DNA of 64,000 bases from Candidatus Kaiserbacteria bacterium (GCA_016699245.1 CP064968.1:768317-832316); one strand, 5' to 3'; counted from the first letter of the stretch, positions 2,890 through 47,469 are shown. Numbers and translations are program-made. Notes: generated from the sequence alone by a model not told the origin.

Positions 2890-3125
2890 GTTTGATATAT
2901 TTTATTACAGCCTATTCCGAAATTAATGCTCGTTCTCTCATTTTTAACCCCCAAACAGGTTTATTAGTTACGTTGGTTCAGTATGTTTTTTGTAATTATC
3001 ACCACTGATTTGATAGAACTCCTTGGATTTTTCAATAACTCTACAAATTGTGTTCCGAATGGCTTACTTAAAACGAAAACAGCCTCCTATGGAAAACTTA
3101 TGTCTTCGCCCAGGAAGCTGGTGAG

Positions 3126-3512
3126 TTAATCCCATTCATCTGATGGGTAGTGGAATGTGACGTAATAGCCCAATATTACGATGAGGATGCCGGCCAAAAT
3201 AAACGCGATGTGAAGAAAATTTGCTTGATCAGTTATATTCCTTTCGATTACAAAAATCCTGCTGAAAATAAACGAAATTGTGGTACCTATAACTACCACA
3301 ACAATTCCAGCACACCTGTGATCAACTCCCAAATACGAGTACTCGGTTCGTTTCCATAGACCAATACAGAAGAACCATATACTTGCACATAAAAGAAGTG
3401 CGTCACCGACGAAGGGTGGTCGTATCGGATAGAAATAGATGGTGCTAATGCTCAAGAAAAAAAGCACAACACCCACATACGTTACTAACTTCTTTTCGAC
3501 ATAAATTTGCAT
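3126..3512 (-). CDS. Small polytopic membrane protein
   Basis: 128-aa strongly hydrophobic ORF. Confidence 0.35.
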   Translation of the reverse strand: MQIYVEKKLVTYVGVVLFFLSISTIYFYPIRPPFVGDALLLCASIWFFCIGLWKRTEYSYLGVDHRCAGIVVVVIGTTISFIFSRIFVIERNITDQANFLHIAFILAGILIVILGYYVTFHYPSDEWD

Positions 3513-3665
3513 GGATCACCCCTTTTGCAAAGAACACCCAATCCAAGTTGGGAATAGAGAAAAGATACCTCATAATTTGATTTTGTCAAAAAATGCATCC
3601 GGGTCTTCCATAGAACCTGTCCACCCCGCACATACGAAAAAACCCGTGAGGGCTTATTTCATATG

Positions 3666-7764: not shown

Positions 7765-8688
7765 TTAAATCCAACGATTTGACTTGAAAAAGTATACCGT
7801 TCCAGAAACAGCAGTAACCACGAACGCTGCAACGTACAGAAAAGCATGTGGATTATCTTGAAATGGAAGTGGGATATTCATACCAAAAATCGAAGATATA
7901 AGGGTTGGAATTGTGAGTACAATCGTAAATGCAGTGAGACGGCGGATTGTAGCGTTAAGATTTTGGGTCAAAATAGACTCACTTGCACTTCGAATATTTT
8001 GAATAGTCTTTAAAATAGACTTTGCAGAGTCAATAAGCTGCGCAGTTTCAATAATAAGGTCTTCGAGTAACTCCCTATCCTCACTAAACATTTGGATATA
8101 GTTCCCTTTCGTGAGTTGTTGGAGCCATTCTTGAGTGGGTACGAGCGCAGACATTATTTCATTCAGTTCCTGTTCCAAAAATACCAAACGTTGAATGTCG
8201 CGACTGCGAATATCACGAATGCGTCCCATGTCGCGATACACCATTTTGCGCATGCGGGTCAACTTTTTTTCATAGGTAGCCTCAATTTCTGAGAGAAATT
8301 GAAGAAAAAGTGCTGTTTTTTGAACAGTTGAATAATCCCTCTTGCCTGCTATGAGTGGGTCAAGGAACGGCGTTTCCTGGTTTGCAATCGTAATAAGAAA
8401 CGTCTCGCCAAGAATTATGAGAATTGGCGCAGTTTCAATATCAATATCCTGCACATCAAAGGGGTAACGGGTGAAAAAATATGATATTGAGCCATCTTTT
8501 TCAAAACGTGGCACCTCAAAGACGTCCCGACTATCATCAATAATAGCCTCATCAAAACCATACTTTTCAATGAGTTCCTTAAGTTCTTCATCAGTAGGCT
8601 TCACTACATGTGTCCACACACCAGCTTTCGCCTCCAAAACGGTTTCGACTTCTGTGGAGTCACTTTGGCGAAAATAATGCGTTATCAT
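7765..8688 (-). CDS. corA: CorA-family Mg2+/Co2+ transporter
   Basis: C-terminal two-TM domain with the GMN motif (FGMNIPLPF). Confidence 0.8.
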   Translation of the reverse strand: MITHYFRQSDSTEVETVLEAKAGVWTHVVKPTDEELKELIEKYGFDEAIIDDSRDVFEVPRFEKDGSISYFFTRYPFDVQDIDIETAPILIILGETFLITIANQETPFLDPLIAGKRDYSTVQKTALFLQFLSEIEATYEKKLTRMRKMVYRDMGRIRDIRSRDIQRLVFLEQELNEIMSALVPTQEWLQQLTKGNYIQMFSEDRELLEDLIIETAQLIDSAKSILKTIQNIRSASESILTQNLNATIRRLTAFTIVLTIPTLISSIFGMNIPLPFQDNPHAFLYVAAFVVTAVSGTVYFFKSNRWI

Positions 8689-8863
8689 AATCTACAGTGT
8701 ATATCAGAAACGAAATAAACCTGCAATGTTTTGCTTTCATATTGTGTACAACCTCGCATTTTTTTGAAAGGAATGCTATTATCGGGGTCATGAAATCGGT
8801 ATGGTGCTGGTTTCGTGTTGAAAAAATTACTTTTCCAGTTCTTGTTCACAAAGGAGGTCTGCA

Positions 8864-9148
8864 ATGAAATTCCGCCAAGGAATTATTCGTACTCTTGTTA
8901 AGTCAGTGATTGACGATTTACTCTACAATGTTCGCCAACTTCCAGGAAAGATCAAGCGTCAACTCTGGAATAAACGCATACTTTTGTGGTGGTCTCGTCT
9001 CTGGATTCGCAAAGACGAGTTTCATTCATCGCTCAGTTTAGATACATCCGCGATGATAGAAATGACCAAAGACGAGTTAGCTGTGTATCTCAGAGACATC
9101 GTGAGAAGACGCAATATTGCACACAACAGAGACTTAGAGGGTTCTTAG
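8864..9148 (+). CDS. Hypothetical protein
   Basis: Strong RBS aaggagg upstream; terminator hairpin at 9154-9178. Confidence 0.45.
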   Translation: MKFRQGIIRTLVKSVIDDLLYNVRQLPGKIKRQLWNKRILLWWSRLWIRKDEFHSSLSLDTSAMIEMTKDELAVYLRDIVRRRNIAHNRDLEGS

Positions 9149-9153
9149 TCTCA

Positions 9154-9178
9154 GGGGAAGCTTGTCTTCCCCGCTTTT
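9154..9178 (+). terminator. Rho-independent terminator (ggggaagcttgtcttcccc plus T-run)
   Basis: Stem-loop followed by gctttt. Confidence 0.55.
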
Positions 9179-9212
9179 AAAGTAAAATCTAAAAGTTTTA
9201 CATCGGGGTGTA

Positions 9213-9364
9213 TCTTCGCCTAACGGCTCGATACATTCCCTCTTCGCTCGGAAATCAAAAAGTCTGTGCTTCGCACACATCCTCTCAGGAATGTTTTAAA
9301 ATCAAGCGAGCTTTATTTTAAAACATTCCTGAGAGGATGACCGACACTTTTTGATTCCTCTCGC
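9213..9364. repeat. 152-bp highly structured insertion, a nested palindrome, flanked by a 14-bp direct duplication (tacatcggggtgta) of the tRNA-Pro 5' end
   Basis: Direct repeats at 9199-9212 and 9365-9378; perfect 25-bp inverted repeats at 9278-9302 and 9315-9339; outer arms at 9250-9264 and 9343-9358. Confidence 0.55.
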
Positions 9365-9369
9365 TACAT

Positions 9370-9440
9370 CGGGGTGTAGCATAGTGGTAGTGTACTCGGT
9401 TTGGGACCGAGTGGTCCGGGTTCGATTCCCGGCTCCCCGA
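9370..9440 (+). tRNA. tRNA-Pro (anticodon TGG)
   Basis: C1:G72 acceptor end, which is characteristic of bacterial tRNA-Pro; CTCGG-TTTGGGA-CCGAG anticodon arm with G37; CCGGG-TTCGATT-CCCGG T-arm; one T-T mismatch in the acceptor stem; CCA is not encoded. Confidence 0.65.
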
Positions 9441-9829
9441 CAAATACTAAAATACCAGTCTTTTGACTGGTATTTTAGTATTCTGTCGCTAGGGAATCGA
9501 AGCTGATGCGAGAAATTTTTCGAGTGAAGCGAAGAAAAATATCCGCATCGGGTACTGAAACTGTAAGTTTCGATATTCCCGGCTCCCCGACAAAAAACGC
9601 AAAAGCCCTGATTTCTCAGGGCTTTTGCGTTTTTTGTCGGGGAGAGGAAGCAAACAATTTTGCTTCCGTCCGGAATCGAACGCCGGAACGATGTGAGTTT
9701 ACGAACGAGTGAGGCGTGTCCCGCGGCACTTAGCGAGTTTACGAGCTTAGTGACCGTCAGGACGATTCCCGGCTCCCCGACAAAATATACGAAAGGCCGC
9801 TAGTCACAACTAGCGGCCTTTCGTATATT
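9424..9829 (+). repeat. Three tandem copies of the tRNA-Pro 3' end (gattcccggctccccgacaaa), each followed by a different perfect terminator hairpin
   Basis: Copies at 9424-9444 (the real tRNA end), 9572-9595 and 9764-9785; hairpins at 9443-9482, 9592-9637 and 9784-9829. Confidence 0.6.
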
Positions 9830-9845
9830 CAATCACATATTAATC

Positions 9846-10334
9846 GTTCCACGTGGAACTATAATGCTTGTTTCATATGAAACAAGCATTATAGTTATTC
9901 GAAAATTACATTCTCTATGAAATTAATCTTCCCGTACTTTTCACGTGGAACTAGACGTATTGCTACAATATCAATTACGAAATCACCAAAATACTTTCTT
10001 TCATCAAGCCAGATGCTAATTGTGTTTTTTAACTTCTTTTGCTTATATGCATGCACATTCTCCTCAGGGCGCCATGTTTTATGTGAAACTGCTCTTTCTA
10101 GATCACTCATTGTTTCATATGAAACAGTCTTTACTTCAATAAAATGGACCTTGCCACTAGTTTCACGTGCAACAATGTCGATTTCACCGCATTTTTTATT
10201 ATAGTTTCTCTCAACAAGAGTAAGGCCTTTCCGCCTAAGCCAATTTGCAGCAATTTCCTCTCCCATTTCCCCAATTTCGTTGTGTTTAGCCATGTTTCAT
10301 ATGAAACTACATGTAAATTTGTTCCACGTGGAAC
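9846..10334. mobile_element. Cassette carrying yraN, bounded by compound palindromic terminal inverted repeats (GTTCCACGTGGAAC plus GTTTCATATGAAAC)
   Basis: Left end at 9846-9893 and right end at 10294-10334 carry the same two 14-bp palindromes in mirrored order; internal copies or variants occur at 9940, 10112 and 10159. Confidence 0.35.
9895..10293 (-). CDS. yraN: YraN-family (UPF0102) predicted endonuclease
   Basis: Motifs GEEIAANWLRRKG, GEIDIVARE and HFIEVKT, which are typical of YraN/UPF0102. Confidence 0.7.
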   Translation of the reverse strand: MAKHNEIGEMGEEIAANWLRRKGLTLVERNYNKKCGEIDIVARETSGKVHFIEVKTVSYETMSDLERAVSHKTWRPEENVHAYKQKKLKNTISIWLDERKYFGDFVIDIVAIRLVPREKYGKINFIENVIFE

Positions 10335-10931
10335 CATTTTAAGTAAATTGCTTAGAATTTGAGCAGAAACTATATTTAAAGCCGTTTTTTAAAGACATTG
10401 CTCTTTTATGTATTTGTCCTTTATACACATATCCACCTGCTTTTCCCCAGTTTTTGGATTTTTTGATTATTTTTGTCGATATGTCCTTTATATTGAAGAT
10501 AGTGTCTTTTATAATGTATTAGCCTAGTTTATCATCATAACTAAACTTAAGTCTTGCACACTGTGCACTATCTTCTACGATTTGGAAGTTTGTGGCCGGG
10601 GAGAATCGGTGTCCAATTCTAATTCGTTGACTCTGGTTTACTTATGATTTTCTAATTGTATCTTTGGTTCTATAATTTGGGGTCAAGTTTCTAAATTCAC
10701 TTCGTTCATTAAGAACTTCCTCCCCGAACTCGTCTGTTTTTGCATTATGAATAGTTTCGTCTCAAAATCTATTGTGAGTAAGATTTTGAGACAGACTCAG
10801 AAAATATAGTCGCTCCCGCTTCTTATTTTCTGGCCACATGACTCCGTTTCACACACAAGATCAAAAGCAAAGCAGTTTGCTTTCTAACGAAAAAACACCA
10901 TTTATTCAATGGTGTTTTTTCGTTTCTTGTG

Positions 10932-10956
10932 TGTGCGACCAGGGGTAATCGAAAAC
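10932..10956 (-). repeat. Partial duplicate of the 3' end of tRNA-Gly(GCC) (tgtgcgaccaggggtaatcgaaaac), with a terminator hairpin at 10896-10928
   Basis: 23/25 identity to 11078-11102; the same tRNA-end-plus-hairpin unit architecture as downstream of tRNA-Pro. Confidence 0.5.
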
Positions 10957-11079
10957 ATACTGTTTCAGTACACCTTTTGGCCTAATTCGCTCGTGTCCTC
11001 GCAATTTGGCTCAAAAGCTCTTTCGATTACCCATGCAAAATTAAAAAGACCAGGGGAAACCCTGATCTTTTTTAATTTG

Positions 11080-11150
11080 TGCGGCCAGGGGTAATCGAAA
11101 CCCCGACTAGTGCTTGGCAAGCACTCGTTATACCACTTAACCATGGCCGC
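11080..11150 (-). tRNA. tRNA-Gly (anticodon GCC)
   Basis: Clean cloverleaf: GCGGCCA acceptor, GTTA/TAAC D-stem, AGTGC-TTGCCAA-GCACT anticodon arm, GGGGT-TTCGATT-ACCCC T-arm; CCA is not encoded. Confidence 0.85.
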
Positions 11151-11156
11151 ATGTAA

Positions 11157-11819
11157 TCAATACTCTTTTTCAGCGAGTGTTACCCATTTGAGTAGTGTTC
11201 GCTTTAAAATTGTATTCCCGATTATAGTATTTCCTACTCCATCATGCAACGTCTGAATTGTATTTTGTTTTTCTAATACTTGATAGCGATGAAACTGAGT
11301 AATTGGAACACGAATTGAACGTGACCAGATGCGTGAAACTTTTTCTGGGGAGTGGGTAGGGTAGAGAAGGAGCCAAAATCGTATATTTTCCCGTGGAACG
11401 CCGAGATATTCTTGCATAAACGTAATAAAAATACGGTGAGCCGACTTTCGTGATGTGGAGATTCGTATCTGATTACTTAATGAGCAGTCACCAAGGGCTG
11501 CATAGAGCATTATCCCTGCAATAAAGGCAGGGAAGTGCTTGTAATGCTTGAAAGATATTGTTGCACTCCGTTCTGCTTCTGCATATTGTTTCTTGAGTTG
11601 GTTGCTGCGCGCTTTATTCAGTAATCCAATACGTTTGCCATTTTCCTTTGAGGTACGTTTCTTATTGTCATTGGTAACAGAAATTGACCATGTTTCATGT
11701 GAAAGCCAGATACTTACGGTACTTTTTGAGACACCCACAACATGCGCTATCTCGGTATAGGTAAAACCACGCTTACGCAATCTGCATGATTCTTCGTACT
11801 GAGCAGATTTACGTATCAC
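11157..11819 (-). CDS. HTH-domain protein with a LAGLIDADG-like motif (paralog 2 of 3); ends 6 bp upstream of tRNA-Gly(GCC)
   Basis: HTH (LRKRGFTYTEIAHVVGVSKSTVSIWL); motif FIAGIMLYAALGD; homologous to the ORFs at 3806..4546 and 12316..12993. Confidence 0.6.
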   Translation of the reverse strand: MIRKSAQYEESCRLRKRGFTYTEIAHVVGVSKSTVSIWLSHETWSISVTNDNKKRTSKENGKRIGLLNKARSNQLKKQYAEAERSATISFKHYKHFPAFIAGIMLYAALGDCSLSNQIRISTSRKSAHRIFITFMQEYLGVPRENIRFWLLLYPTHSPEKVSRIWSRSIRVPITQFHRYQVLEKQNTIQTLHDGVGNTIIGNTILKRTLLKWVTLAEKEY

Positions 11820-12180
11820 AGTATGAGTATAATATATACTTCGTCAATTGTTCGATTTGAGGTGTGTAGAAGCTGGGTTTTAGGTATACAGGTACTTAGT
11901 TGGACTCGTCCCGCTTTTTGACCAATTTTTCTTGAGACTGAACGGATTTAGAAAAATGTAAGGTGAATTGCGAAGCAAGAGAAGATACCCTGGGGTAGAA
12001 ATACTCTTGTGGTGCTAACTCACTACATTTTGTGGTCACGAGTTGCTAAGTGTAATCAAACACTTCGTGTTGATTACACTAAGCACTCTCGACCCCAGCT
12101 CGTGGTTTTTCTTCTTTGTGGAAGAAAAACATCACTCCGCCTTGCACAAAAGCCGAACGCAAAGCCTTTTGCGTTCTAAA

Positions 12181-12216
12181 CTAAAAGCCCATTTTCTTAA
12201 GAAAATGGGCTTTTAG
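12181..12216 (-). terminator. Perfect palindromic terminator hairpin directly downstream of tRNA-Arg
   Basis: ctaaaagcccattttcttaagaaaatgggcttttag; three more hairpins follow at 12040-12180. Confidence 0.55.
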
Positions 12217-12315: not shown

Positions 12316-12993
12316 CTATTCTTTGAGATAAGAATCAACCAACATTTTCTGCCAAAACTTCATTTTGAGTAGTAGTTCTTTACTCCTCCTGACCTCGATG
12401 CGAATACACCCCTTATATAGCGGGCGCTTTTTAATTCCGCGACCACCTGGCTTATAGATAGTTTTTTTGAACTGGTCTTTATGTATATTAAGTTTATTTT
12501 TCCACCACTCTTCACAATTTTCGTGTGCGTACAATTTATGTATGAAAAGACGAAAATGCAAATCAGAGTGTTTAATTTCAATAAATCTTTCTAACCACAA
12601 AATCATTACTTGAATCATGTCATCGTCTGAGTTTATAAAACTCCATTGATTGACACGTTTTGCTCCCTCAGCCCAATATAGAGAAATGCCACAATGAAAA
12701 AATGTATCGTGTTTGTATTGTTGAAACACTTTTTGTGCTTCTTCAAGAAAAACTTGTTCACGAGCAAGACGTCTTTTTCTTAATTCGCTTGCTGCGTTAA
12801 TTCGTCCCCGCGTTATGTTTGAATCTTTGCGATGTTTAAGCACCTTCCTTTCATCCTCAGTAAGTGGTAAGTCTTTGAGCCAAAGCGACAATGAACTCTT
12901 TGCAACATTAACTTCTTTTAAAATTTCATTATATGAGCAACCTTTTCTGCGAAGTTGTATAGCTCGATCTTTCTCTTGAACTAATGTTTTCAT
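12316..12993 (-). CDS. HTH-domain protein with a LAGLIDADG-like motif (paralog 3 of 3); ends 16 bp upstream of tRNA-Arg
   Basis: HTH (LRRKGCSYNEILKEVNVAKSSLSLWL); motif FFHCGISLYWAEGAKR; homologous to the ORFs at 3806..4546 and 11157..11819. Confidence 0.6.
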   Translation of the reverse strand: MKTLVQEKDRAIQLRRKGCSYNEILKEVNVAKSSLSLWLKDLPLTEDERKVLKHRKDSNITRGRINAASELRKRRLAREQVFLEEAQKVFQQYKHDTFFHCGISLYWAEGAKRVNQWSFINSDDDMIQVMILWLERFIEIKHSDLHFRLFIHKLYAHENCEEWWKNKLNIHKDQFKKTIYKPGGRGIKKRPLYKGCIRIEVRRSKELLLKMKFWQKMLVDSYLKE

Positions 12994-25020: not shown

Positions 25021-25949
25021 TCACCCCCGTGAGTGAAACTTTTTGTGGATGTCGCGGAGGTGTTTGTCGGTGACGTGGGTGTATATCTGGGTGGTGGCGA
25101 TATTGGCGTGGCCGAGGAGTGCCTGTACGGAGCGGAGGTCGGCACCATTATGGAGTAGGTCGGTGGCGAAACAGTGGCGGAGTTTATGGGGGGTGACTTT
25201 GCGGGTAATACCGGCAATGGTTGCGTAGCGCTTTATTATGCGTTGCACACTCCTTGGTGTGAGCCGAAGGTCTTTATTTTTCAACTCATCATGCTTGGCG
25301 TTTTTTCCATACTGAATAAACATGGCATCATCAAAGTCCTTACGTTCTTTGAGATACGCTTTGATTGCGTCTCGCGCCGTGTCCGAAAGAAATACCACAC
25401 GCACCTTGTCTCCCTTGCCGCGTACGGAAAATTCATCTCGACTTAAATCCACATCTTCTTGAGACAGTGCACACAGTTCAGACACACGAAGGCCGGTTGA
25501 AAAAAGAAGTTCGAGTATTGCTTTATCCCGGAGGCCGGAAAGGGAAGCGAGGTCGGGTGCCTCAATGAGGCGCGTGAGCTCGGAAGAAGAGATGAGGTCG
25601 AGAGAACGTTCAGGCACTTTCGCGAGTTCAATGCGCTCAGGGTTGAGCGACTCGATGCCGCGTTTCCGCATATATTTTAGAAACGCACGAAGTGCAATGA
25701 GGTAGTAGTTTCGTGTTTTCGGTTTCAGAGTCTCCATATTTCTCCCAACCTTCGTTCCGGGCTGACGATTGAGCCATAGGCGGTACTCGCGTACATGCGC
25801 TTCAGTGAGTGCGCTTGGATTTTCAATTTTTGAGTATTCCAAAAAGCGGGTGAGATAGTGGTCGTAGTTCCTCACGGTCAAAATACTGCGTCCTTTTTCA
25901 ATTTCGAGGTATTCAAGGAATTCGCGTTTGAGTTCGGTTAAGGTCATAC
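25021..25949 (-). CDS. xerC: Tyrosine site-specific recombinase, XerC/XerD type
   Basis: C-terminal R..HxxR..Y catalytic motifs (RHCFATDLL..LGHANIATTQIYTHV); the start is the Met of MTLTELKREFLEYL at 25947-25949; the 453-codon ORF upstream is read-through. Confidence 0.8.
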
Positions 25950-26122
25950 ATACAATATATAGGTATAGGGAGGGAAGTGTCGCACAATATAGTGGATAAG
26001 CCCGCGTTAGGGCAGGGGTTGCGCACTTTGTCAAACTGTGGTAGAGTGGTGACAACCTTCGCAGGTTACTAACAACGCGCCACGGAACAACATCTACGTT
26101 CCATGACGCATTTTTAAACACT

Positions 26123-26389
26123 ATGCTTACAAAACGAAAGAAAGAAAACGCGATTAAGGAAGTTCGCCGACATGATCTCGACACTGGTTCACCACAAGCA
26201 CAGGTGGCAATTCTCACGAAGTCAATTGAAGAACTCTCGAAGCATCTTAAGAAGAATTTGAAGGATTTCCACTCACGTCGTGGACTCCTCCAGATGGTTG
26301 CCGATCGCCGCACACATCTTAAGTACCTCGAGAAGAAAGATGAAAAGGCATACAAGGCCCTCATCAAGAAACTCTCACTCAAGAAGTAA
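26123..26389 (+). CDS. rpsO: 30S ribosomal protein S15
   Basis: 88 aa; HSRRGLLQMV..RRTHLKYL motifs typical of S15. Confidence 0.9.
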   Translation: MLTKRKKENAIKEVRRHDLDTGSPQAQVAILTKSIEELSKHLKKNLKDFHSRRGLLQMVADRRTHLKYLEKKDEKAYKALIKKLSLKK

Positions 26390-35271: not shown

Positions 35272-35650
35272 CTGTTCTTTACGGAGTACTTTGTACCCAG
35301 AACGAGAATCGTGAAAGAAATATGTTATAAGCGATTTTTATGGACTCTCCACCTACGCAACCACTACGGTAATTATCTGAAACAAAAAGAGCGAACTTGG
35401 AAAGGCGCTCCATGTAGTACCCACAAGAGGTACGGTTACATGATAGCGGAGTAGGGAGGAGGGTCAACCTTGCAAAAAGGTCTTTTCCACAGTTTGACTC
35501 AAAGTGCTTTTCTGACGCTCTATATAGGGGTATTTAAGGTATTGCGGTATCTTTTCTTTGTGTTCTAATATTCTAGATGTTTTCAGTATCCCCAAAATGG
35601 GTACGGGGACACAGCATGTTATAGTTGATGCCACATTTACTTTTTTATAT

Positions 35651-38600
35651 ATGGATCATCTTCACGGACTCAACGACGCACAACGAAATGCGGTAGTAAC
35701 AACAGAGGGACCGCTCTTGGTACTCGCGGGTGCGGGCTCAGGAAAAACCCGCGTAATTACTCATCGGATTATCAATCTCATTTTACAAGGAGTACCTCCA
35801 GAGCGGATTTTGGCAGTGACATTTACCAATAAAGCCGCAAAAGAAATGCGCGAGCGCGTAATGAATCTTATTCATACACATCAAGGAGGAGCGCGTGCGA
35901 CTGAGAGCGGAGTACCTTTAGTGACCACTTTCCACGCGCTTGGGGTACGGATGCTTCGGGAGCACCATGAGGTGTTTGGTCTTCGGAAGCAGTTTGTGAT
36001 TTATGACAGAAGCGACTCAACGAGCGCTATAAAGAAGGCTATGGAGCGGGCAGGTCAGGACCCAAAGCAGTTTGAGCCACGGAAAATACTCTCAATAATA
36101 TCGCGCGCAAAGGGCGATGCGGTAACCCAAACTGACTTTAGTGGGAGTGCGCGTACGTACCCCGAGCGAGTTGCTGCAGATGTGTGGATTCACTATGAGG
36201 CAATTTTGAAGGAGGATCATGCGCTTGATTTTGATGATCTCCTCGCAAAGACACTCTCTATGCTCAAAAGCCATCCGCCAATTCTTGATGAGTACCGCAA
36301 GCGTTTTACCTATGTACACATCGATGAATACCAGGACACCAACCGGGTGCAGTTCGAAATCGCACGGCTTATAGTAGGAGATAGGGCTAATCTTTGTGTG
36401 GTGGGTGATGTCGACCAGTGTCTTATGGAAGGAACAGAGGTCACCATGGCTGACAAAACGAAATGCCCAGTAGAAAAAATAAAAAAAGGTGACTCTGTAC
36501 TTTCATGTTATGGAAGTGGTGATTTTCGTCCAGCACTCGTCGTGAGGGCACGAGCACTTGTGCCCAAAGACGAGTTAGTGCGAATTGAAACAGTAAGTGG
36601 AAAAGTACTCATAAGTACAAAAGACCATATTCATTTTGCTAGTTATGTTCTTGGAATTACCCCACAGACGTACATCACCTACCTCATGTGGAAAGGAGGC
36701 GTTGGATGGCGACTCGGTACAACACAGATATACACAAAAGGCCAAAAAAAGTCAGTTGTTGGGCTCATACAGCGGAGCAATCATGAGCATGCAGACGCGA
36801 CGTGGGTGGTGAGTACGCATCACTCCATTCAGGAGGCTCGTGTTCATGAGTACATTCTTTCTCTTACCTATCAAATACCCACAGTTCCCTTTATTCCACG
36901 TCGTGGACTGAGTACTCACGGTTATGTACATGACGGAGACGCGCTAAAACAAATTTTTTCTTCAGTTGATACAGAGAAATCTGCACGCAAGCTTCTTTCT
37001 GACTACCATCTCTCCCTCTCTTTTCCGCACCATCGCCCACAGTCATCGAAAAGTGTTCGAAAGAATATCAACGTTACCCTCTGTGGCGACAGACGAGGAA
37101 AGACGCCAATGCACCGAATCAGTATGGTCGGCTCAGATAGTGAGACAAAAAAACTCCTTATGTCTCATGGTTTTTCTGTTCGTCCCGCAAAGAAGAACTC
37201 CACGGGTTGGCGCTTCGAAACTGCACATGCTTCATTTGCACACATTGAGGCACTGGTCACACAACTCCAATCAATCATTCCTCAGGCATATGTCACCATG
37301 CATGCGCGTTTCGGAATACAAGATGAGAATCTAATACAAAAAAACTCACTTCTTTTTACTCCCGCAAGTTCCGTTAAAGCCGGAATGGCTCTTTTTGGAA
37401 GTAATGGAAAGTACGAAATTGTGAAAGAAGTGTCTCTTTTAAAATCCTCTTCTCGCGTGTTCGATATCGATATTGAACACACACACAACTATATTGCAAA
37501 TGGTATTGTGACACACAATTCAATTTACTCATGGCGTGGTGCAGATATCAAAAATATTTTGCAATTTGAACGTCATTTTCCCAATGCAAAAATTATCATG
37601 CTCGAGGAAAACTATCGCTCCACACAGACCATCATCACCGCATCAAATGATGTTATTGAAAAAAATGTAAACCGTCCTCTCAAAAAAGTATTTACCAAAA
37701 ATCATGAAGGTGAACTTATCTCACTCTACGCAGCTATGGGTGGGCAAGAAGAAGCGGAGTACGTAGCACTCACTGCAAAAGATTTGATAAAAAACGGCGT
37801 ATTTCCTTCTGAAATTGCCATCCTCTTCCGTACCAACTTCCAATCGCGTGCACTCGAGGAGGCGTTTATCAACTACGATGTACCGTATCAAATGCTCGGT
37901 ACCAAATTTTTTGAGCGCAGGGAGGTAAAGGATGTACTTTCCTTTCTTCGTTTCGCGTGTAACCCCGACAGCAACGCCGACTTGGTACGCATCATCAACA
38001 CACCTCCGCGAGGTATTGGAAAAGTAACACTCCTAAAAATAGTAGAGGGGAAGCGTGCTGAACTCCCGGGGAAAACGAGTGAAAAAGTTGATGCGTTTTA
38101 TCGCATGATAGACGACATTGCTACCTATGCAAAGGAGCACCCCGTCCACGAGACGCTTGCATTCATCATGAAGCATACCGGCATGGAAGCCGAATACAAA
38201 ACAGGCGGGGAAGAAGGGCTTGAGCGTCTCGAAAACGTCCGTGAGTTGGTAACCCTCGGCACCAAGTATCAGGAGTACGGGCCCGAAGAGGCTATCGAGC
38301 ATCTCCTTGAAGACTCCGCTCTCGGAAGTGATCAGGATGAGATGAAAGAAAAAGAGGAATTTGATGCCGTGCGCCTCATGACTATCCACTCTTCAAAGGG
38401 ACTTGAATTCCCCTATATCTTTATTACCGGCCTCGAGGAAGGACTCTTTCCCCATGAGCGCCTCAGTGACGAGGGAATTGACGAGGAAGAAGAGCGACGT
38501 CTCTTTTACGTAGCCCTCACCCGCGCAAAAAAGAAAGTATTTCTTTCCTACGCCCATATTCGTACTATATTTGGAACACAACGGGTAAATGCGCCATCTT

Positions 38601-38686
38601 CTTTCCTTCGCGACATCAGAAGTGAACTCCTTGAAAGCAAAAACCCCGCAGAATCTGGCTTCGAACGTACTATTTATCTGGATTAG
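35651..38686 (+). CDS. UvrD/PcrA-type DNA helicase carrying an in-frame intein
   Basis: Walker A motif AGAGSGKTRV; helicase motif III (VGDVDQ / SIYSWRGA) interrupted by a 367-aa insertion; the start is probably the Met at 35651. Confidence 0.85.
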   Translation: MDHLHGLNDAQRNAVVTTEGPLLVLAGAGSGKTRVITHRIINLILQGVPPERILAVTFTNKAAKEMRERVMNLIHTHQGGARATESGVPLVTTFHALGVRMLREHHEVFGLRKQFVIYDRSDSTSAIKKAMERAGQDPKQFEPRKILSIISRAKGDAVTQTDFSGSARTYPERVAADVWIHYEAILKEDHALDFDDLLAKTLSMLKSHPPILDEYRKRFTYVHIDEYQDTNRVQFEIARLIVGDRANLCVVGDVDQCLMEGTEVTMADKTKCPVEKIKKGDSVLSCYGSGDFRPALVVRARALVPKDELVRIETVSGKVLISTKDHIHFASYVLGITPQTYITYLMWKGGVGWRLGTTQIYTKGQKKSVVGLIQRSNHEHADATWVVSTHHSIQEARVHEYILSLTYQIPTVPFIPRRGLSTHGYVHDGDALKQIFSSVDTEKSARKLLSDYHLSLSFPHHRPQSSKSVRKNINVTLCGDRRGKTPMHRISMVGSDSETKKLLMSHGFSVRPAKKNSTGWRFETAHASFAHIEALVTQLQSIIPQAYVTMHARFGIQDENLIQKNSLLFTPASSVKAGMALFGSNGKYEIVKEVSLLKSSSRVFDIDIEHTHNYIANGIVTHNSIYSWRGADIKNILQFERHFPNAKIIMLEENYRSTQTIITASNDVIEKNVNRPLKKVFTKNHEGELISLYAAMGGQEEAEYVALTAKDLIKNGVFPSEIAILFRTNFQSRALEEAFINYDVPYQMLGTKFFERREVKDVLSFLRFACNPDSNADLVRIINTPPRGIGKVTLLKIVEGKRAELPGKTSEKVDAFYRMIDDIATYAKEHPVHETLAFIMKHTGMEAEYKTGGEEGLERLENVRELVTLGTKYQEYGPEEAIEHLLEDSALGSDQDEMKEKEEFDAVRLMTIHSSKGLEFPYIFITGLEEGLFPHERLSDEGIDEEEERRLFYVALTRAKKKVFLSYAHIRTIFGTQRVNAPSSFLRDIRSELLESKNPAESGFERTIYLD
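36419..37519 (+). mobile_element. Intein (367 aa) inserted in helicase motif III of the UvrD/PcrA gene
   Basis: Begins with Cys (CLMEG), ends with ..VTHN and is followed by Ser+1 (SIYSWRGA); the flanks restore the canonical DQSIYxxRGA motif. Confidence 0.75.
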
Positions 38687-43569: not shown

Positions 43570-45846
43570 ATGAATACCATCCAACAAAAAAATAAATTCT
43601 TGCAGGGCGTGCTTGCCTTTATTTTCTTTGTGATTCTTTGTACCCCTGTTGCTATTTCATTTGAAAAGGACTCGGTGAAATCGGCCTCCGAAACAATTGG
43701 AGTCTCGGAATTTTCTTCAATTAAAATTGCTATCAGCCCCACCATAGCATACGCAGCAGATAAGGGTAAAAACGATGCTTCAGGTTCGGAATGGGTCCAG
43801 AAAGTGGTGATGGTTCTTGGTAATTTACTCCTTAGTATTGGTGCTTTCTTTGCATGGGTCACCGGCAACTTCCTTGATAAGTCACTCAAAGAACTCGTCT
43901 TTGGAATGGGTGATTTAATAAATAAAGGTGGAATAGGAATTGCTATTGATACCGCATGGGGTATTGTCCGTGATTTGTGTAACCTTGCATTTATATTTGG
44001 ATTTATTTTCCTCGGTATTCGTACTATCATTGACCCCGATAATTCTTCAGTGAAGCGTACACTTTCTCAAATTATCATTGGTGCATTCCTCATCAACTTC
44101 AGCCTCTATATGGCGAAGTTCATCATTGATTTTTCAAACTTTACTGCGTACTCCATTTACAACGCAATGGTAACAGGCGGAAGTTCCATCTCCATGATTA
44201 TGTTTGACCAGCTGGGAATCACCACATTTTATTCAACGAAAGGAATAAATACAGCCCAGTTTGCTCAAGCGACCGGGGATGGAATGATTGCGTTTTACAT
44301 CATGGGAATGATTCTTCTCCTCGTGGCTTCATTTATTTTTCTTGCTTCTACGCTACTCCTTGTTTCTCGATTCGTGCTCCTGGTATTCCTTATGATTGGT
44401 TCGCCCATACTTTTTGCTGCAACGGTGTTTCCAAAGACAGAGGGGTACGCCAAATTGCTCTGGGGGAAACTTCTCTCATTATCGTTTTTTGCACCGCTCT
44501 ACCTCCTTCTCACACTCATATCAATGATGATGCTGAAAAGTTTTGTGGGAGTAATGAGTGGCGGACAACAATTTGCATCTACCTTCACTGACCCTAATGC
44601 CAAAATGGATGCCTTCGGTGTCGTCGTGAGCTTCGTGGTAGTGATATATTTCCTCATTCAGTCGTTACTCATTGCTAAACAGCTTGGTGTTGCAGGTGCG
44701 GATAGAGCGATTGGGCTTGGGAAAACACTGAAAGGAAATGCACAAAGCCTTGTAGGAAGGACGGCACTGGGCTGGGGTGGAAATAAAATCGCAAAATGGC
44801 AAGAGAACGCACGCTACAATGGGGGAGCAGGGAGTAAGGCTGCTGCTAGAGCTGCACGATGGACGGGTGTTGATGCTGCTGCGAATGCTGCTGCGAATGC
44901 GAAATGGGGAGGTTCGAAATCAAGTAAAGAAACTGCTAGCGAGAGTCAGGAAAGGGGTCGAAAACATGCCAGAGCACAGCAAGTATCAACCATCTCTACG
45001 GCAGTCTCTGAAAGCACACACCTCAATGCAGAGCGAGAGAGAATTGAGAAGGACACTTCATCCACCCAAGCACAAAAAGATGCTGCACGTACAGCGAGCG
45101 ATACCGCTAATATGCGCATGGAGAGTGCACTTGCCGGTGCGTCCTCAGAACAAACGCTTGAACTTCTTAGGAAGCATAAAAGCGGGCCTGAACGAGATGC
45201 CATCGTTGCCAACCTTTCTGCAAGCCAGTTTGACGGTCTCATGAAAGCCAAGCCAGAAGATCTTGATGATGGAAAGAAAGAAGAACTTCGCGGTCAACGT
45301 TCTACCGCAGTGCAAAATCGACTGATTGCTGCAGAGGATAGAAAGCGTAAAGCATCTGCAACGCCGAGTGCTCCCGCAGTAGCGGCAACTATTCAGGATG
45401 TTATTGGAAAAGCAGATGGAAAGGATCTTGATGCAATGGGCTTTGATACTGTGCTCAGTCACGCAGGACAACTCTCAACTAAGCAAGTCGATGACATGTC
45501 ACTTACACCAACAGCCAAAACCCGTCTCAAGGATGCACGGAAAGCAGCACTTATTGCTGAGTTCAATACAGGTGGTGCTGGAGCTGGCGCGGGAGATCTA
45601 TTTAAGAGAATCACCAGTGAGACAGAACGAGCCAAACTACCCGGAGAGATCCTTAAGGACAGCGGAGCAGCTCCGTATCTTACACAACAGGTTCTCACCA
45701 AGATGCTTGATAATGAAAGTGTTCTTGCTTCAGACCGGGCTGCTATTAAAACAAACGTTGAAACAGCATGGCTTACCAATCCTACAAAGGCACGACAATT
45801 TGCAGACTTCTTTGATGACACCCCCGCAGGTAAACAATATGTATAG
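43570..45846 (+). CDS. VirB6/TrbL-like polytopic membrane protein with a long low-complexity hydrophilic C-terminal tail
   Basis: Multiple TM helices in the first ~380 aa; Ala/Lys-rich tail; located next to PrgI-like and VirB4-like genes. Confidence 0.5.
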   Translation: MNTIQQKNKFLQGVLAFIFFVILCTPVAISFEKDSVKSASETIGVSEFSSIKIAISPTIAYAADKGKNDASGSEWVQKVVMVLGNLLLSIGAFFAWVTGNFLDKSLKELVFGMGDLINKGGIGIAIDTAWGIVRDLCNLAFIFGFIFLGIRTIIDPDNSSVKRTLSQIIIGAFLINFSLYMAKFIIDFSNFTAYSIYNAMVTGGSSISMIMFDQLGITTFYSTKGINTAQFAQATGDGMIAFYIMGMILLLVASFIFLASTLLLVSRFVLLVFLMIGSPILFAATVFPKTEGYAKLLWGKLLSLSFFAPLYLLLTLISMMMLKSFVGVMSGGQQFASTFTDPNAKMDAFGVVVSFVVVIYFLIQSLLIAKQLGVAGADRAIGLGKTLKGNAQSLVGRTALGWGGNKIAKWQENARYNGGAGSKAAARAARWTGVDAAANAAANAKWGGSKSSKETASESQERGRKHARAQQVSTISTAVSESTHLNAERERIEKDTSSTQAQKDAARTASDTANMRMESALAGASSEQTLELLRKHKSGPERDAIVANLSASQFDGLMKAKPEDLDDGKKEELRGQRSTAVQNRLIAAEDRKRKASATPSAPAVAATIQDVIGKADGKDLDAMGFDTVLSHAGQLSTKQVDDMSLTPTAKTRLKDARKAALIAEFNTGGAGAGAGDLFKRITSETERAKLPGEILKDSGAAPYLTQQVLTKMLDNESVLASDRAAIKTNVETAWLTNPTKARQFADFFDDTPAGKQYV

Positions 45847-45848
45847 GT

Positions 45849-46364
45849 ATGGAAAATGAATTACAACAAAAGCGCATCGGCGCGTATCGGGCAGCAAGTC
45901 AACTAATAAAGGATCAGTATGGGAATATGGTTTTGGGTGGTATTTTAAAATCCATCTCACAGAACAATTCGCTTTCAAAGGAAAAACATGGTGACTTTGT
46001 AAATCTGATTGGTGACTATATTCTTGGTATATATTCGAAGGATGTCGTTGAAGAAAAATTGGTATCTCAGATTGGCATTGCGAGCAACGAGACAAAAAGT
46101 GTCCTATCGGTGATTACAAATTTCCTTACGGGAAAGGAAAATGCTCCTGAGGTCCCCGAAGCACCAAAGGATTTCAAGGAGAAGCTTGAGTTGCGACCCG
46201 AGGACGCACAGGTATCAGAAAGCGATGGGAAAGGAAGTGTGCGCCCACTCACCCGTGACGAAGTCTTGCGTGCACTCGCGCCGGCACGCACTATGGCAGG
46301 GGATATCGCATCACTCGGGAAGCCATCAGATACTCCACGAGTACCACCTACAGCAAAACCGTAG
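45849..46364 (+). CDS. Hypothetical protein
   Basis: 171-aa ORF within the cluster. Confidence 0.35.
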   Translation: MENELQQKRIGAYRAASQLIKDQYGNMVLGGILKSISQNNSLSKEKHGDFVNLIGDYILGIYSKDVVEEKLVSQIGIASNETKSVLSVITNFLTGKENAPEVPEAPKDFKEKLELRPEDAQVSESDGKGSVRPLTRDEVLRALAPARTMAGDIASLGKPSDTPRVPPTAKP

Positions 46365-46391
46365 GTATCACGACTCTTGCAGGAAGGCTAT

Positions 46392-46420
46392 CCGCGCGCG
46401 CGCCTTCGGCGCGCGCGCGG
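46392..46420 (+). promoter_or_regulatory. Perfect 12-13 bp pure-GC hairpin with a UUCG tetraloop (ccgcgcgcgcgcc-ttcg-ggcgcgcgcgcgg)
   Basis: Very GC-rich stem in an AT-biased genome; a tacaat -10-like element lies 8 nt downstream, just before the PrgI-like gene. Confidence 0.5.
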
Positions 46421-46441
46421 ACTGCGGTACAATACACATAT

Positions 46442-46846
46442 ATGCGCTTTGAAGTTCCACAATTCATTGAGGTAGAAGATAAAATTATCGGCCCCCTTAC
46501 GTGGAAGCAATTTGTGTACCTTGCGGGGGGTGTAGGTATCATAGTGGTACTGTTCCTCAGTGTACCTTTTTTGATTTTCATACTTTTTGCACTTCCGCTG
46601 GGTGCGCTCTCGTTTGCACTTGCGTTTCATCGTGTCAACAATCGACCATTTTCGGTTTTTCTTGAATCTGCCGTAATGTTTTTTACCCGCAGTCGGTTGT
46701 ATCTGTGGCGTCGTGAAACTGCACAAACCATTGTCGTAAAAAAAGAAAAATCTGAGCAGACGACTTCTGATTCTGAATTACACTCAGTACGCACGCAATC
46801 AATTCACACGCTCTCACGCAAATTAGAGCATTCACTACCCGAATAA
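46442..46846 (+). CDS. PrgI/VirB3-like small membrane protein
   Basis: 134 aa, with two adjacent TM helices after a short N-terminus, as in PrgI-family proteins; located next to VirB4. Confidence 0.5.
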   Translation: MRFEVPQFIEVEDKIIGPLTWKQFVYLAGGVGIIVVLFLSVPFLIFILFALPLGALSFALAFHRVNNRPFSVFLESAVMFFTRSRLYLWRRETAQTIVVKKEKSEQTTSDSELHSVRTQSIHTLSRKLEHSLPE

Positions 46847-46849
46847 TAT

Positions 46850-47467
46850 ATGGCGACGCAATCCTCAACACAAAAATTTGTTCCTATTGCGGATATTCAT
46901 GATGACGTGGTTGTTCTCAAAGACGGCCAGCTTTGTATGGTACTTCTTGCGTCCTCCGTCAACTTTGCACTCAAGTCTCTCGAAGAACAGCAGGCAATTC
47001 TCTCTCAGTTCCAAGCATTTCTAAATTCGATGGACTTTTCCCTTCAAATATACATGCAATCCCGTCGTCTCGATATTCGACCCTACCTTGAAACACTCAG
47101 AGAGCGAGAACCGCTTCAGGATAATGATCTCATGCGCACGCAACTCCGTGAGTATATTGAATTCATCAGCACATTTACCTCACAGGTAGAAATCATGACA
47201 AAAAACTTCTTTGTAGTGGTACCCTATGCCCCACTCGGTGTAGAAGTGAAAGGAATATCAAATTTACTCAAACAAAAAGAAACAAAGGAATCGCGTGCTG
47301 ACAAATTTTTTGAGGACCGCACGCAGCTTGAGCAACGTGTATCGGTGGTAGAACAGGGACTTGCACGCATCGGCATTCGCACAGCACCTCTCGGTACCGA
47401 CGAACTCACTGAATTGTATTATCACATTTTCAACCCAGATGACTTATCAAAAGCACCAAAACCGTAA
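46850..47467 (+). CDS. VirB4 N-terminal domain-like protein (possibly a split or frameshifted N-terminus of the ATPase)
   Basis: Matches the N-terminal ~200 aa of Gram-positive VirB4/TrsE proteins (pattern ..KDG..C..L...inF.LKS.EEQ..I...F..FLNS.DF..QI); stop at 47467; the next ORF starts at 47470 in another frame. Confidence 0.4.
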   Translation: MATQSSTQKFVPIADIHDDVVVLKDGQLCMVLLASSVNFALKSLEEQQAILSQFQAFLNSMDFSLQIYMQSRRLDIRPYLETLREREPLQDNDLMRTQLREYIEFISTFTSQVEIMTKNFFVVVPYAPLGVEVKGISNLLKQKETKESRADKFFEDRTQLEQRVSVVEQGLARIGIRTAPLGTDELTELYYHIFNPDDLSKAPKP

Positions 47468-47469
47468 CT

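Follow-up and report, generated by a model that had tools for sequence, protein, structure and literature searches.

A tRNA-Pro gene of a Candidatus Kaiserbacteria chromosome lies within a nested array of short, structured, non-coding cassettes

The T-loop of tRNA genes is a classic integrase sublocation, and tandem arrays of partial tRNAs have reportedly been found in tycheposon islands. The integration of genetic elements also yields tRNA gene fragments (PMC9897764). We analysed the tRNA-Pro(UGG) locus in a 64-kb stretch (64,000 nt, hereafter the window) of a Candidatus Kaiserbacteria chromosome (Patescibacteria, candidate phyla radiation (CPR); GCA_016699245.1, CP064968.1:768317-832316), where a first-pass annotation had noted a resemblance to serial integration or excision of elements that use the tRNA ends as attachment sites. 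We found that the intact tRNA-Pro sits inside a nested array of short, non-coding, structured cassettes, and that the spacers of this array belong to widespread families of structured modules that follow tRNAs of most isotypes in the phylum, which the first-pass annotation had overlooked.

The relatives used for comparison are syntenic loci (labelled L001, L005, L127 and so on) whose CorA proteins are 44-91% identical to that of the window; L127 and L001 are two labels for one locus. The CorA homologues carry the labels Candidatus Kaiserbacteria, Paceibacteria or Patescibacteria.

Structured modules downstream of tRNA genes

The tRNA-Pro gene (9370-9441, + strand) is intact and has no encoded CCA; it is found by ARAGORN and by the Rfam model RF00005, at 65.5 bits against a threshold of 29. 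Parts of it recur on both sides. A 14-nt sequence, TACATCGGGGTGTA, occurs exactly twice in the 64 kb, at 9199-9212 and 9365-9378, where 0.03 copies are expected and none of 100 shuffled sequences gave two, which bears out the direct repeat reported by the first-pass annotation. Its make-up had been given correctly as leader plus tRNA start, but not as to the numbers: with the tRNA starting at 9370, it consists of 5 leader and 9 tRNA nucleotides rather than 4 and 10, and the upstream copy (9199-9212, + strand) is a 5' remnant made of the leader TACAT and tRNA-Pro nucleotides 1-9. The recurrence of the tRNA 3' end downstream was also confirmed, the 21-nt sequence GATTCCCGGCTCCCCGACAAA being present in three copies in total (9424, 9574 with one mismatch, and 9764) against 0 expected. 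These three copies begin in the T-loop, at about position 57, as do the 3' repeats at other tRNAs. The repeating part extends from the T-loop to the discriminator plus CAAA, and the window holds three such ends, three hairpins and two units. Remnant 1 (9572-9592, + strand) comprises the 3' half of the T-loop, the 3' strands of T-stem and acceptor, and the discriminator, with one extra base (GATATTCCC); remnant 2 (CGATTCCCGGCTCCCCGACAAA) occupies 9763-9784 (+ strand). No tRNA is called at either.

Each 3' end is followed by a different perfect hairpin on the + strand, with arms of 18 nt (9443-9482; A-rich 5', T-rich 3'), 29 nt (9583-9644) and 21 nt (9784-9829), the two arms of each matching at 100%. 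We call these hairpins terminator-like because of their shape, in which a GC core is flanked by A-rich sequence in the 5' arm and by T-rich sequence in the 3' arm. The earlier description of them as perfect hairpins holds, but a consensus terminator scan called none of the three because their T-runs form part of the stems. The second palindrome takes in the acceptor strand of remnant 1 and also holds its antisense copy, which is segment X1 of module 2 (see below). The third is probably the ancestral terminator of the locus; it was likened by eye, without alignment, to the last hairpin of the L001 locus. Elsewhere in the window, after a tRNA-Gly(UCC) that lacks module 1, the terminator palindrome (3600-3665, - strand) reaches the acceptor strand, with TGTGCGGGGTGG past the hairpin; under strict criteria, 13 of 109 module-less tRNAs in the related loci show such a palindrome.

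What fills the spacers between the repeats? In the general order of a unit, the tRNA is followed by an A-rich arm, a GC hairpin and a T-rich arm, then by a segment X1, an optional hairpin H1 and a segment X2; next come GAA, a long hairpin P2, a junction (GGTGTACTGAA), a small hairpin P3 with a GUA loop, the tRNA remnant and the next hairpin. X1 reverse-complements the acceptor 3' strand together with the discriminator and, where it is encoded, CCA, and X2 does the same for the T-stem 3' strand and T-loop; the remnant spans tRNA position ~54-57 to the discriminator. The ggaatcgaa motifs, formerly taken for decayed tRNA sequence in the spacers, are antisense copies from the same tRNA, covering its T-loop and the 3' half of its T-stem.

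Spacer 1 is module 1 (9483-9571, + strand), whose family has a size of about 100 nt. It starts with an antisense segment X (9483-9501) composed of TGTCG, the reverse complement of the acceptor end, and GGGAATCGAA, the reverse complement of TTCGATTCCC. The core (9502-9571; nhmmer E = 2e-31) contains P2 (9502-9552), the junction GGGTACTGAA (9550-9559) and P3 with its GUA loop (9557-9571). The terminal inverted repeats of the module are formed by X and the remnant and are therefore copies of the local tRNA. The fold of 9483-9595 has z = -3.7, and the core shows covariation: across 44 aligned copies, 26 of the 27 predicted pairs carry compensatory changes, and the share of paired cells is 93.8%, which falls to 69.2% in shuffles and to no more than 56% once the partners are shifted against each other. 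GAA, GGUGUACUGAA and the GUA triloop are conserved although unpaired. When P2 and P3 are read on the tRNA sense strand, G:U exceeds A:C (27 versus 5 in a hand tally, 73 versus 33 in 125 copies), suggesting that the folded strand is the tRNA sense strand.

Spacer 1 resembles sequences found 3' of other tRNAs in relatives, and a profile built from six copies recovered 42 copies of module 1 in the related loci. All but two lie 36-310 nt after tRNA-Pro, tRNA-Arg, tRNA-Gly(GCC) or tRNA-Gly(UCC), and most precede a T-loop-to-3'-end copy of their own tRNA; the two exceptions are inverted (L005) or just upstream of tRNA-Gly (L135). In the census of 29 Patescibacteria sequences (the window and 28 related loci), module 1 follows 33 of 75 tRNAs. 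An exact-pattern scan of metagenome contigs returned at least 120 loci, and 109 of the 120 matches listed are true modules, associated with at least 29 anticodon classes (18 amino acids). Overall, module 1 stands 36-350 nt, usually 36-80 nt, downstream of its tRNA and on the tRNA strand. At least two copies without a detected tRNA are directly 3' of a group I intron match (RF00028; L171 1645-1886 and L223 4093-4321) at which ARAGORN finds no tRNA; these sites are probably intron-containing tRNA genes in these metagenomic bacteria. The other tRNA-less copies lie at the edge of a contig or lack a tRNA hit within 600 nt.

The window itself holds a second module 1 copy (10928-11043, - strand), 36 nt after tRNA-Gly(GCC), which has a Gly-specific antisense segment and remnant and a core 62% identical to that of the first. 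Spacer 2 belongs to a second family, with members after Pro, Gly, His and Asp tRNAs. This module 2 (9636-9762, + strand) consists of X1 (GTCGGGGAG, 9636-9644), H1 (9646-9667), X2 (CCGGAATC, 9670-9677) and two core hairpins (9680-9762), and its fold (9636-9785) reaches -68.7 kcal/mol with z = -6.4. A member of a third family, module 3, is found at 11990-12184 (- strand), 42 nt after tRNA-Arg(UCG); this family follows Arg, Phe, Leu, Glu, Ile and Gly tRNAs. Literature searches found no description of these modules, and the families of both downstream modules are apparently so far undescribed. When the Rfam 15 covariance models were run on the window, tRNAs alone passed the gathering threshold, and within 9100-9900 nothing besides the tRNA came near its threshold at gathering or E-value cut-offs.

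Several known kinds of RNA were considered for the modules and rejected. By inspection, the junction GAA / GUACUGAA is off the hammerhead consensus, and no hammerhead or other ribozyme core was matched in Rfam; the weak microRNA-like Rfam matches are simply long hairpins. A mimic of the tRNA acceptor, recognised by RNase P or synthetases, is ruled out because in full-length copies the antisense segment pairs even the discriminator and the encoded CCA, so that the 3' end is not free. As to a retron non-coding RNA, the window ORFs (open reading frames) scanned include no reverse transcriptase, and the hairpin order suits the antisense strand only, whereas the G:U bias points to the sense strand. 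Tandem interspaced guide RNA (TIGR) arrays and box C/D-like guides have a 36-nt unit size and motifs that do not match the modules; CPR clades are mentioned in connection with TIGR arrays in PMC12045711.

To which partner does the antisense segment owe its sequence, the remnant or the tRNA? In 64 modules we found 67 differences between remnant and tRNA. The antisense copy matches the tRNA at 60 of them and the remnant at 2, and an additional 90 positions are altered in the antisense segment alone. Antisense segment and remnant are therefore independent, decaying copies of the tRNA end. A selected closing helix of antisense and remnant is ruled out, since the three-way comparison with the tRNA reveals no compensation.

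Since the antisense copy tracks the tRNA and not the remnant, template switching at palindromic tRNA terminators deserves mention here. Template-switch mutation perfects quasipalindromes, and such quasipalindrome correction or snap-back synthesis could have created the units with neither mobility nor function, gene conversion keeping the copies alike. Many of the hairpins are indeed perfectly Watson-Crick over 18-30 bp, terminator palindromes reach the acceptor strand even at module-less tRNAs such as the tRNA-Gly(UCC) of the window, and in L254 the same terminator follows the remnant and the tRNA. However, template switching cannot make the same ~70-nt core with its conserved junction at at least 29 kinds of tRNA in many genomes, and it accounts neither for the different terminators in successive units of one array nor for the G:U bias. 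Thus, we regard it as an improbable origin of the modules.

A structured leader element upstream of tRNA-Pro

Upstream of the gene, a promoter-like motif, CTCGCATTTTTTT ... GCTATTATCG (8753-8786, + strand), is conserved before tRNA-Pro in ~20 related loci, the form shared by relatives being CTCGCATTTTTT ... GGTATTATCG. From its conservation, it may function as the tRNA-Pro promoter. At simple loci, 17-60 nt separate the motif from the tRNA-Pro start. In the window, 152 bp (9213-9364) lie between the two 5' repeats alone, and the nested palindromes that the first-pass annotation described in them are all present, with outer arms at 9253-9263/9346-9356. The RNA fold of 9238-9369 reaches -55.6 kcal/mol (z = -9.8).

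The element has three parts. (i) The 5' remnant GGGGTGTATC (9205-9214) is hairpinned to an antisense copy of itself, GATACATTCC (9230-9239). This hairpin (9205-9239, + strand) is weak on its own (-16.8 kcal/mol, z = -2.45, 2 of 200 shuffles as stable); homologues with different loops exist in L005, L006, L127, L133 and L134, and (C)GGGGTGTA is kept at the equivalent place in relatives. (ii) The motif CTCTTCGCTCGG (9241-9252, + strand), conserved in 11 relatives, is a near-repeat of the leader end and tRNA start (CTCTCGCTACAT followed by CGG, 9358-9372) and may, judging by this resemblance, be a duplicated insertion site. (iii) A predicted three-way junction (9250-9358, + strand), derived from the fold and from the alignment of 11 orthologues, has an outer stem (9250-9263/9346-9358), a side hairpin (9265-9277) and a long hairpin (9278-9339) with an apical AAG-YRAR-CTT; the arms of the long hairpin (9278-9307/9310-9339) are 30 nt long and 97% matched. 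The same arrangement, a GGGGTGTA remnant hairpinned to its antisense, then CTCTTCGCTCGG, then the three-way junction, is found at 13 loci including the window, across which the long hairpin measures 25-30 bp. A covariation check, as proposed in the first-pass annotation, was positive: the 11 orthologues, 134-144 nt long and widely divergent in sequence, show compensatory changes at 36 of 48 predicted pairs.

The first-pass annotation had offered two further readings of the 152 bp, a multi-copy miniature inverted-repeat transposable element (MITE) and a structured RNA cotranscribed with the tRNA. The first is contradicted by copy number, since the element is single-copy in the 64-kb window and is found in relatives at no tRNA but tRNA-Pro. 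It does have terminal inverted repeats as MITEs do, namely the outer stem. The 14-nt repeat that flanks the 152 bp may be a target-site duplication, but relatives share just 8-9 nt of it (GGGGTGTA); the three-way junction lies between the copies of another near-repeat, CTCT(T)CGCT. The second reading fits the 152-bp element, which stands between the conserved promoter and the tRNA.

This fit leads to the main rival explanation of the whole array, strongest for the leader element: host-functional structured RNAs linked to tRNAs, that is, leader or trailer elements or small RNAs riding on tRNA transcription, whose sense and antisense ends would pair as a closing helix or affect the cognate tRNA (for example through processing, regulation or guiding) and whose arrays would have arisen by local duplication. 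Strong covariation in both the module 1 core and the leader element speaks for such RNAs, as do the sense-strand G:U bias of module 1, unpaired conserved nucleotides (GAA, GGUGUACUGAA, the GUA triloop) typical of structured RNAs, and orthologous copies that persist between genomes whose CorA proteins are just ~45% identical. The leader element, moreover, is certainly located between promoter-like motif and tRNA, and its length is held at 134-144 nt. Dicistronic tRNA-snoRNA (small nucleolar RNA) genes of plants provide a precedent; their RNAs are released by tRNA 3' processing, according to the reference list of PMC12045711. However, the 3' modules come after hairpins that have T-runs and look like canonical terminators, there is no space in which these modules could have their own promoter, the antisense segment and the remnant evolve without compensation, three unrelated cores share the same flanks, and no Rfam family matches. 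We therefore consider functional RNAs an unlikely explanation of the array, and the distribution of the modules, described below, counts against them further.

An ORF of 94 amino acids (8864-9148, + strand), with a strong Shine-Dalgarno sequence and its own hairpin (9152-9176), is inserted between the tRNA-Pro promoter and the leader. It has an internal 12-nt repeat (CAAAGACGAGTT, two copies), no counterpart at the locus in the close relatives L127 and L005, and homologues among hypothetical CPR proteins of 65-155 amino acids.

Turnover of the cassettes and their possible origin

Besides the anatomy, family membership and covariation of the modules, their patchy distribution can be observed directly. 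The tRNA-Arg and tRNA-Gly(UCC) genes of the window lack module 1, which is present at these tRNAs in relatives; L005, L134 and L139 carry it at tRNA-Arg. By eye, the terminator of the window tRNA-Arg resembles the second terminator of L134 and L139 (also of L005), which places the additional unit in between the tRNA body and the older terminator. In outline, this supports the first-pass annotation: a relative without the cassette carries what looks like the terminator that stands second in cassette-bearing relatives.

How similar two cassettes are does not follow how closely their genomes are related. The cassette at 9442-9574 of the window (133 nt; hairpin 1, X and core) is 94% identical over 100% of its length to that of L131, where corA DNA is 75% identical, and with the tRNA-Arg cassette of L144 (corA 66%) it shares 88% identity over 99%. 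In contrast, it matches that of the closest genome, L127, at 81% over just 71% of its length (corA 84%). Within single contigs, P2 and the junction are shared between different tRNAs: the copies at tRNA-Cys and tRNA-Leu do not differ (L200), and those at Gly and Arg tRNAs have 96% identity (L150). One module at tRNA-Pro of L150 is seemingly nested in another, as judged by eye; tandem arrays are also seen, as is the inverted copy in L005. This discordance, together with the patchy distribution and the nested, inverted and truncated copies, is at odds with host-functional RNAs.

A further arrangement is seen at tRNA-Pro in L127, L129, L131 and L136, where the order is 5' half, X, complete tRNA-Pro, Y and 3' half, with X and Y here being inverted repeats of ~30 nt. 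The older tRNA-Pro is broken at 37/38 where this could be read (L001/L127; positions 5400-5640 of L127), and its outer halves are decaying; L137 is more complex, and L005 keeps Y and a degenerate 3' half only. From the sequence, this looks like the insertion of a whole tRNA unit into an older tRNA-Pro. Repeats that start in the anticodon loop, an integrase-type sublocation, are seen in L127 and L131.

Are the arrays the scars of conventional integration? In its conventional form, the main idea of the first-pass annotation would be that prophages, plasmids or islands carrying an integrase had repeatedly used tRNA-Pro and left decayed attL/attR sites. As such scars would, the direct repeats of the tRNA 3' part start in the T-loop, and tRNA gene fragments are known from integrated elements (PMC9897764). 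Part of the idea stands, as duplicated tRNA ends do bound inserted DNA and are serially stacked. However, the units are not remnants of gene-carrying elements: all 67 of 67 remnants are less than 400 nt from their own tRNA, with no ORFs in between, and none bounds genes. Independent deletions would not reproduce the same ~100-nt unit at tRNAs of at least 18 amino-acid types. A megablast of 8000-11500 against 50,697 phage records gave no match, 0 of 130 viral contigs matching the core patterns contain a module (plasmids were not searched), and neither the arrays nor their flanks hold an integrase, as judged from the annotation of L001, L005, L006 and the first 15 kb of the window. Integrase scars are thus already largely refuted, and we consider this origin very improbable.

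What is the origin of the cassettes, then? The pattern of intact tRNA, inserted DNA and displaced tRNA end is that of a Campbell-type event. We therefore tentatively favour, at slightly less than an even chance, a model in which small non-coding cassettes were inserted serially into the tRNA gene and each brought along a substitute for the tRNA end; that insertion is the origin, where the crossover falls and what the intermediate would be are all inferred from this pattern. The cassettes would enter the tRNA gene successively, at the T-loop in the case of the 3' cassettes and within the first few nucleotides in that of the 5' element, by Campbell-type recombination that may be site-specific or may use the tRNA itself as homology. 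Each inserted unit of 130-190 bp is non-coding and has its own terminator-like hairpin, an antisense tRNA end and a structured core. The incoming unit would supply a new tRNA end that has its own terminator or leader; therefore, the tRNA would stay functional and the old end would be pushed outward, so that the newest unit adjoins the tRNA. Upstream, the displaced leader and tRNA nucleotides 1-9, hairpinned to their own antisense, are followed by the 130-nt three-way junction and a fresh leader. By analogy with integron attC sites and CTX phage, the conserved, sense-strand-biased hairpin core could be the part that the recombination machinery sees as folded single-stranded nucleic acid. The tailoring of antisense and remnant to each tRNA might mean that cassette lineages are specific to particular tRNAs, or that template switching or gene conversion corrects both copies against the adjacent tRNA.

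Several observations weigh against serial insertion. None of the copies has a linked recombinase, transposase or reverse transcriptase, and the sole tyrosine recombinase of the window, which is XerD-like (25021-26382), lies at a distance of 15 kb. Neither a free nor a circular form turned up, and the absence of modules from the viral contigs cited above counts here too. Copies inside one genome are often just 60-80% identical, so there was no recent burst. A simple transposon does not account for antisense and remnant being tailored per tRNA. Gene conversion between existing copies, and not movement, could be the source of the shared cores; presence and absence can equally be explained by deletion between direct repeats; and covariation in perfect palindromes could arise through template-switch correction, without a selected function. 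Finally, the leader element has no G:U bias (about 12 G:U versus 13 A:C in a hand tally).

If the cassettes do insert, they might form an unrecognised and categorically new class of gene-less, structure-defined elements in Patescibacteria that home to tRNA genes of essentially every isotype, a proposal that we consider possible but doubtful. In such a class, each insertion would rebuild the interrupted tRNA end, which it would carry in both sense and antisense copies around a conserved three-way-junction core. A trans-acting recombinase would use the folded core, together with the stem derived from the tRNA, as its active substrate or guide, making the elements self-targeting, unlike known transposons, integrons and integrases. 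On a second reading, the antisense segments could act as per-tRNA regulators.

Whatever their origin, the modules are of interest in genomes of ~1 Mb with little spare DNA, where about 4 in 10 sampled tRNA genes bear structured modules of 100-200 nt that duplicate their own end. If mobile, they would amount to tRNA-targeted integration in a minimal form without proteins, would illustrate how an essential gene can be invaded harmlessly and would mark gene flow among uncultured lineages. If they are RNAs, they would add a large new class of structured, tRNA-linked RNAs to a phylum in which RNA biology is almost unexplored. In either case, they account for tRNA fragments and long palindromes that confuse the annotation and assembly of these genomes, and they provide a family ready for a covariance model in RNA and repeat databases.

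Neighbouring genes and relation to known systems

The gene neighbours of the tRNA-Pro locus are CorA, an ECF sigma factor, UPF0102 and the CCA-adding enzyme, and three further tRNAs lie within 9 kb. A palindromic 14-mer, GTTYCAYRTGRAAC, has nine copies with at most one mismatch (9846-10334, also 11692) where 0.26 are expected; eight of the nine are in or around the UPF0102/YraN-like nuclease gene (9895-10293, - strand), and motifs of this type flank the orthologous gene in L001, L005 and L006. The 14-mer may be an operator or a nuclease recognition site. Two paralogous proteins (11157-11819 and 12316-12993, both - strand; 220 and 225 amino acids, 25% identical) share an N-terminal helix-turn-helix domain. 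Their genes end 7-17 nt upstream of tRNA-Gly(GCC) and tRNA-Arg(UCG), an arrangement kept in relatives; the family is highly conserved (54-81% identity), and its C-terminal domain has a confident AlphaFold model with no significant PDB match. The XerC/XerD-like recombinase mentioned above (25021-26382, - strand) has an extra N-terminal region of ~150 amino acids and exceeds the NCBIfam cut-off for the archaeal XerA/integron-integrase-type model only. Further away, a UvrD-type helicase gene (35558-38686, + strand) has an intein, with Intein_splicing and HINT matches between the helicase domains, and 43570-49266 (+ strand) contains TrbL/VirB6-like and TraG/VirB4-like genes, which indicates a type IV secretion or DNA-transfer cluster. 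At the locus L237, positions 3062-3184 match LOOT RNA (RF03000).

How do the cassettes compare with described systems? With integrase-mediated integration into tRNA genes (attL/attR) they share a direct repeat that begins in the T-loop and comprises the tRNA 3' part, a tRNA restored by the incoming DNA, a displaced 3' end left downstream, and serial stacking. In contrast to that system, the units here are 130-190 bp long and have no genes or integrase, their repeats are 150-190 nt apart with no ORF, and they hold an antisense tRNA end and a covarying hairpin core; one core family is found at tRNAs of most isotypes, and 5' ends are duplicated too.

Integron attC sites and the CTX-type folded sites of integrative mobile elements exploiting Xer (IMEX) likewise have imperfect inverted repeats with structure conserved over sequence and strand-biased folding, form arrays of units that each end in such a site, and rebuild the recombination partner sequence as a hairpin stem. 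Here, however, no integron integrase or attI is nearby, the cassettes are without ORFs, the stem is tRNA-gene sequence and tRNA-specific, and the crossover would be at the inner rather than the outer end of the stem.

MITEs, Correia elements, repetitive extragenic palindromes and bacterial interspersed mosaic elements (REP/BIME) and the IS200/IS605-derived palindrome-associated transposable elements (PATEs) resemble the cassettes in their 100-200 bp, terminal inverted repeats and hairpin potential, and in their intergenic position beside terminators and nested insertions. They differ from the cassettes, whose terminal repeats copy the end of the neighbouring tRNA and vary by locus, whose copies within a genome are diverged with compensatory changes, and for which neither a short uniform target-site duplication nor a related transposase was seen; the 152-bp element, in addition, is single-copy. 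The tRNA-linked non-coding RNAs, that is, tRNA-snoRNA genes, small RNAs derived from tRNA spacers, and large RNAs adjacent to tRNAs such as GOLLD and ROOL, also present a structured element beside a tRNA, on the same strand and with strong covariation. In contrast, a terminator-like hairpin parts the tRNA from the 3' modules described here, which match no Rfam model and contain both sense and antisense copies of the tRNA end.

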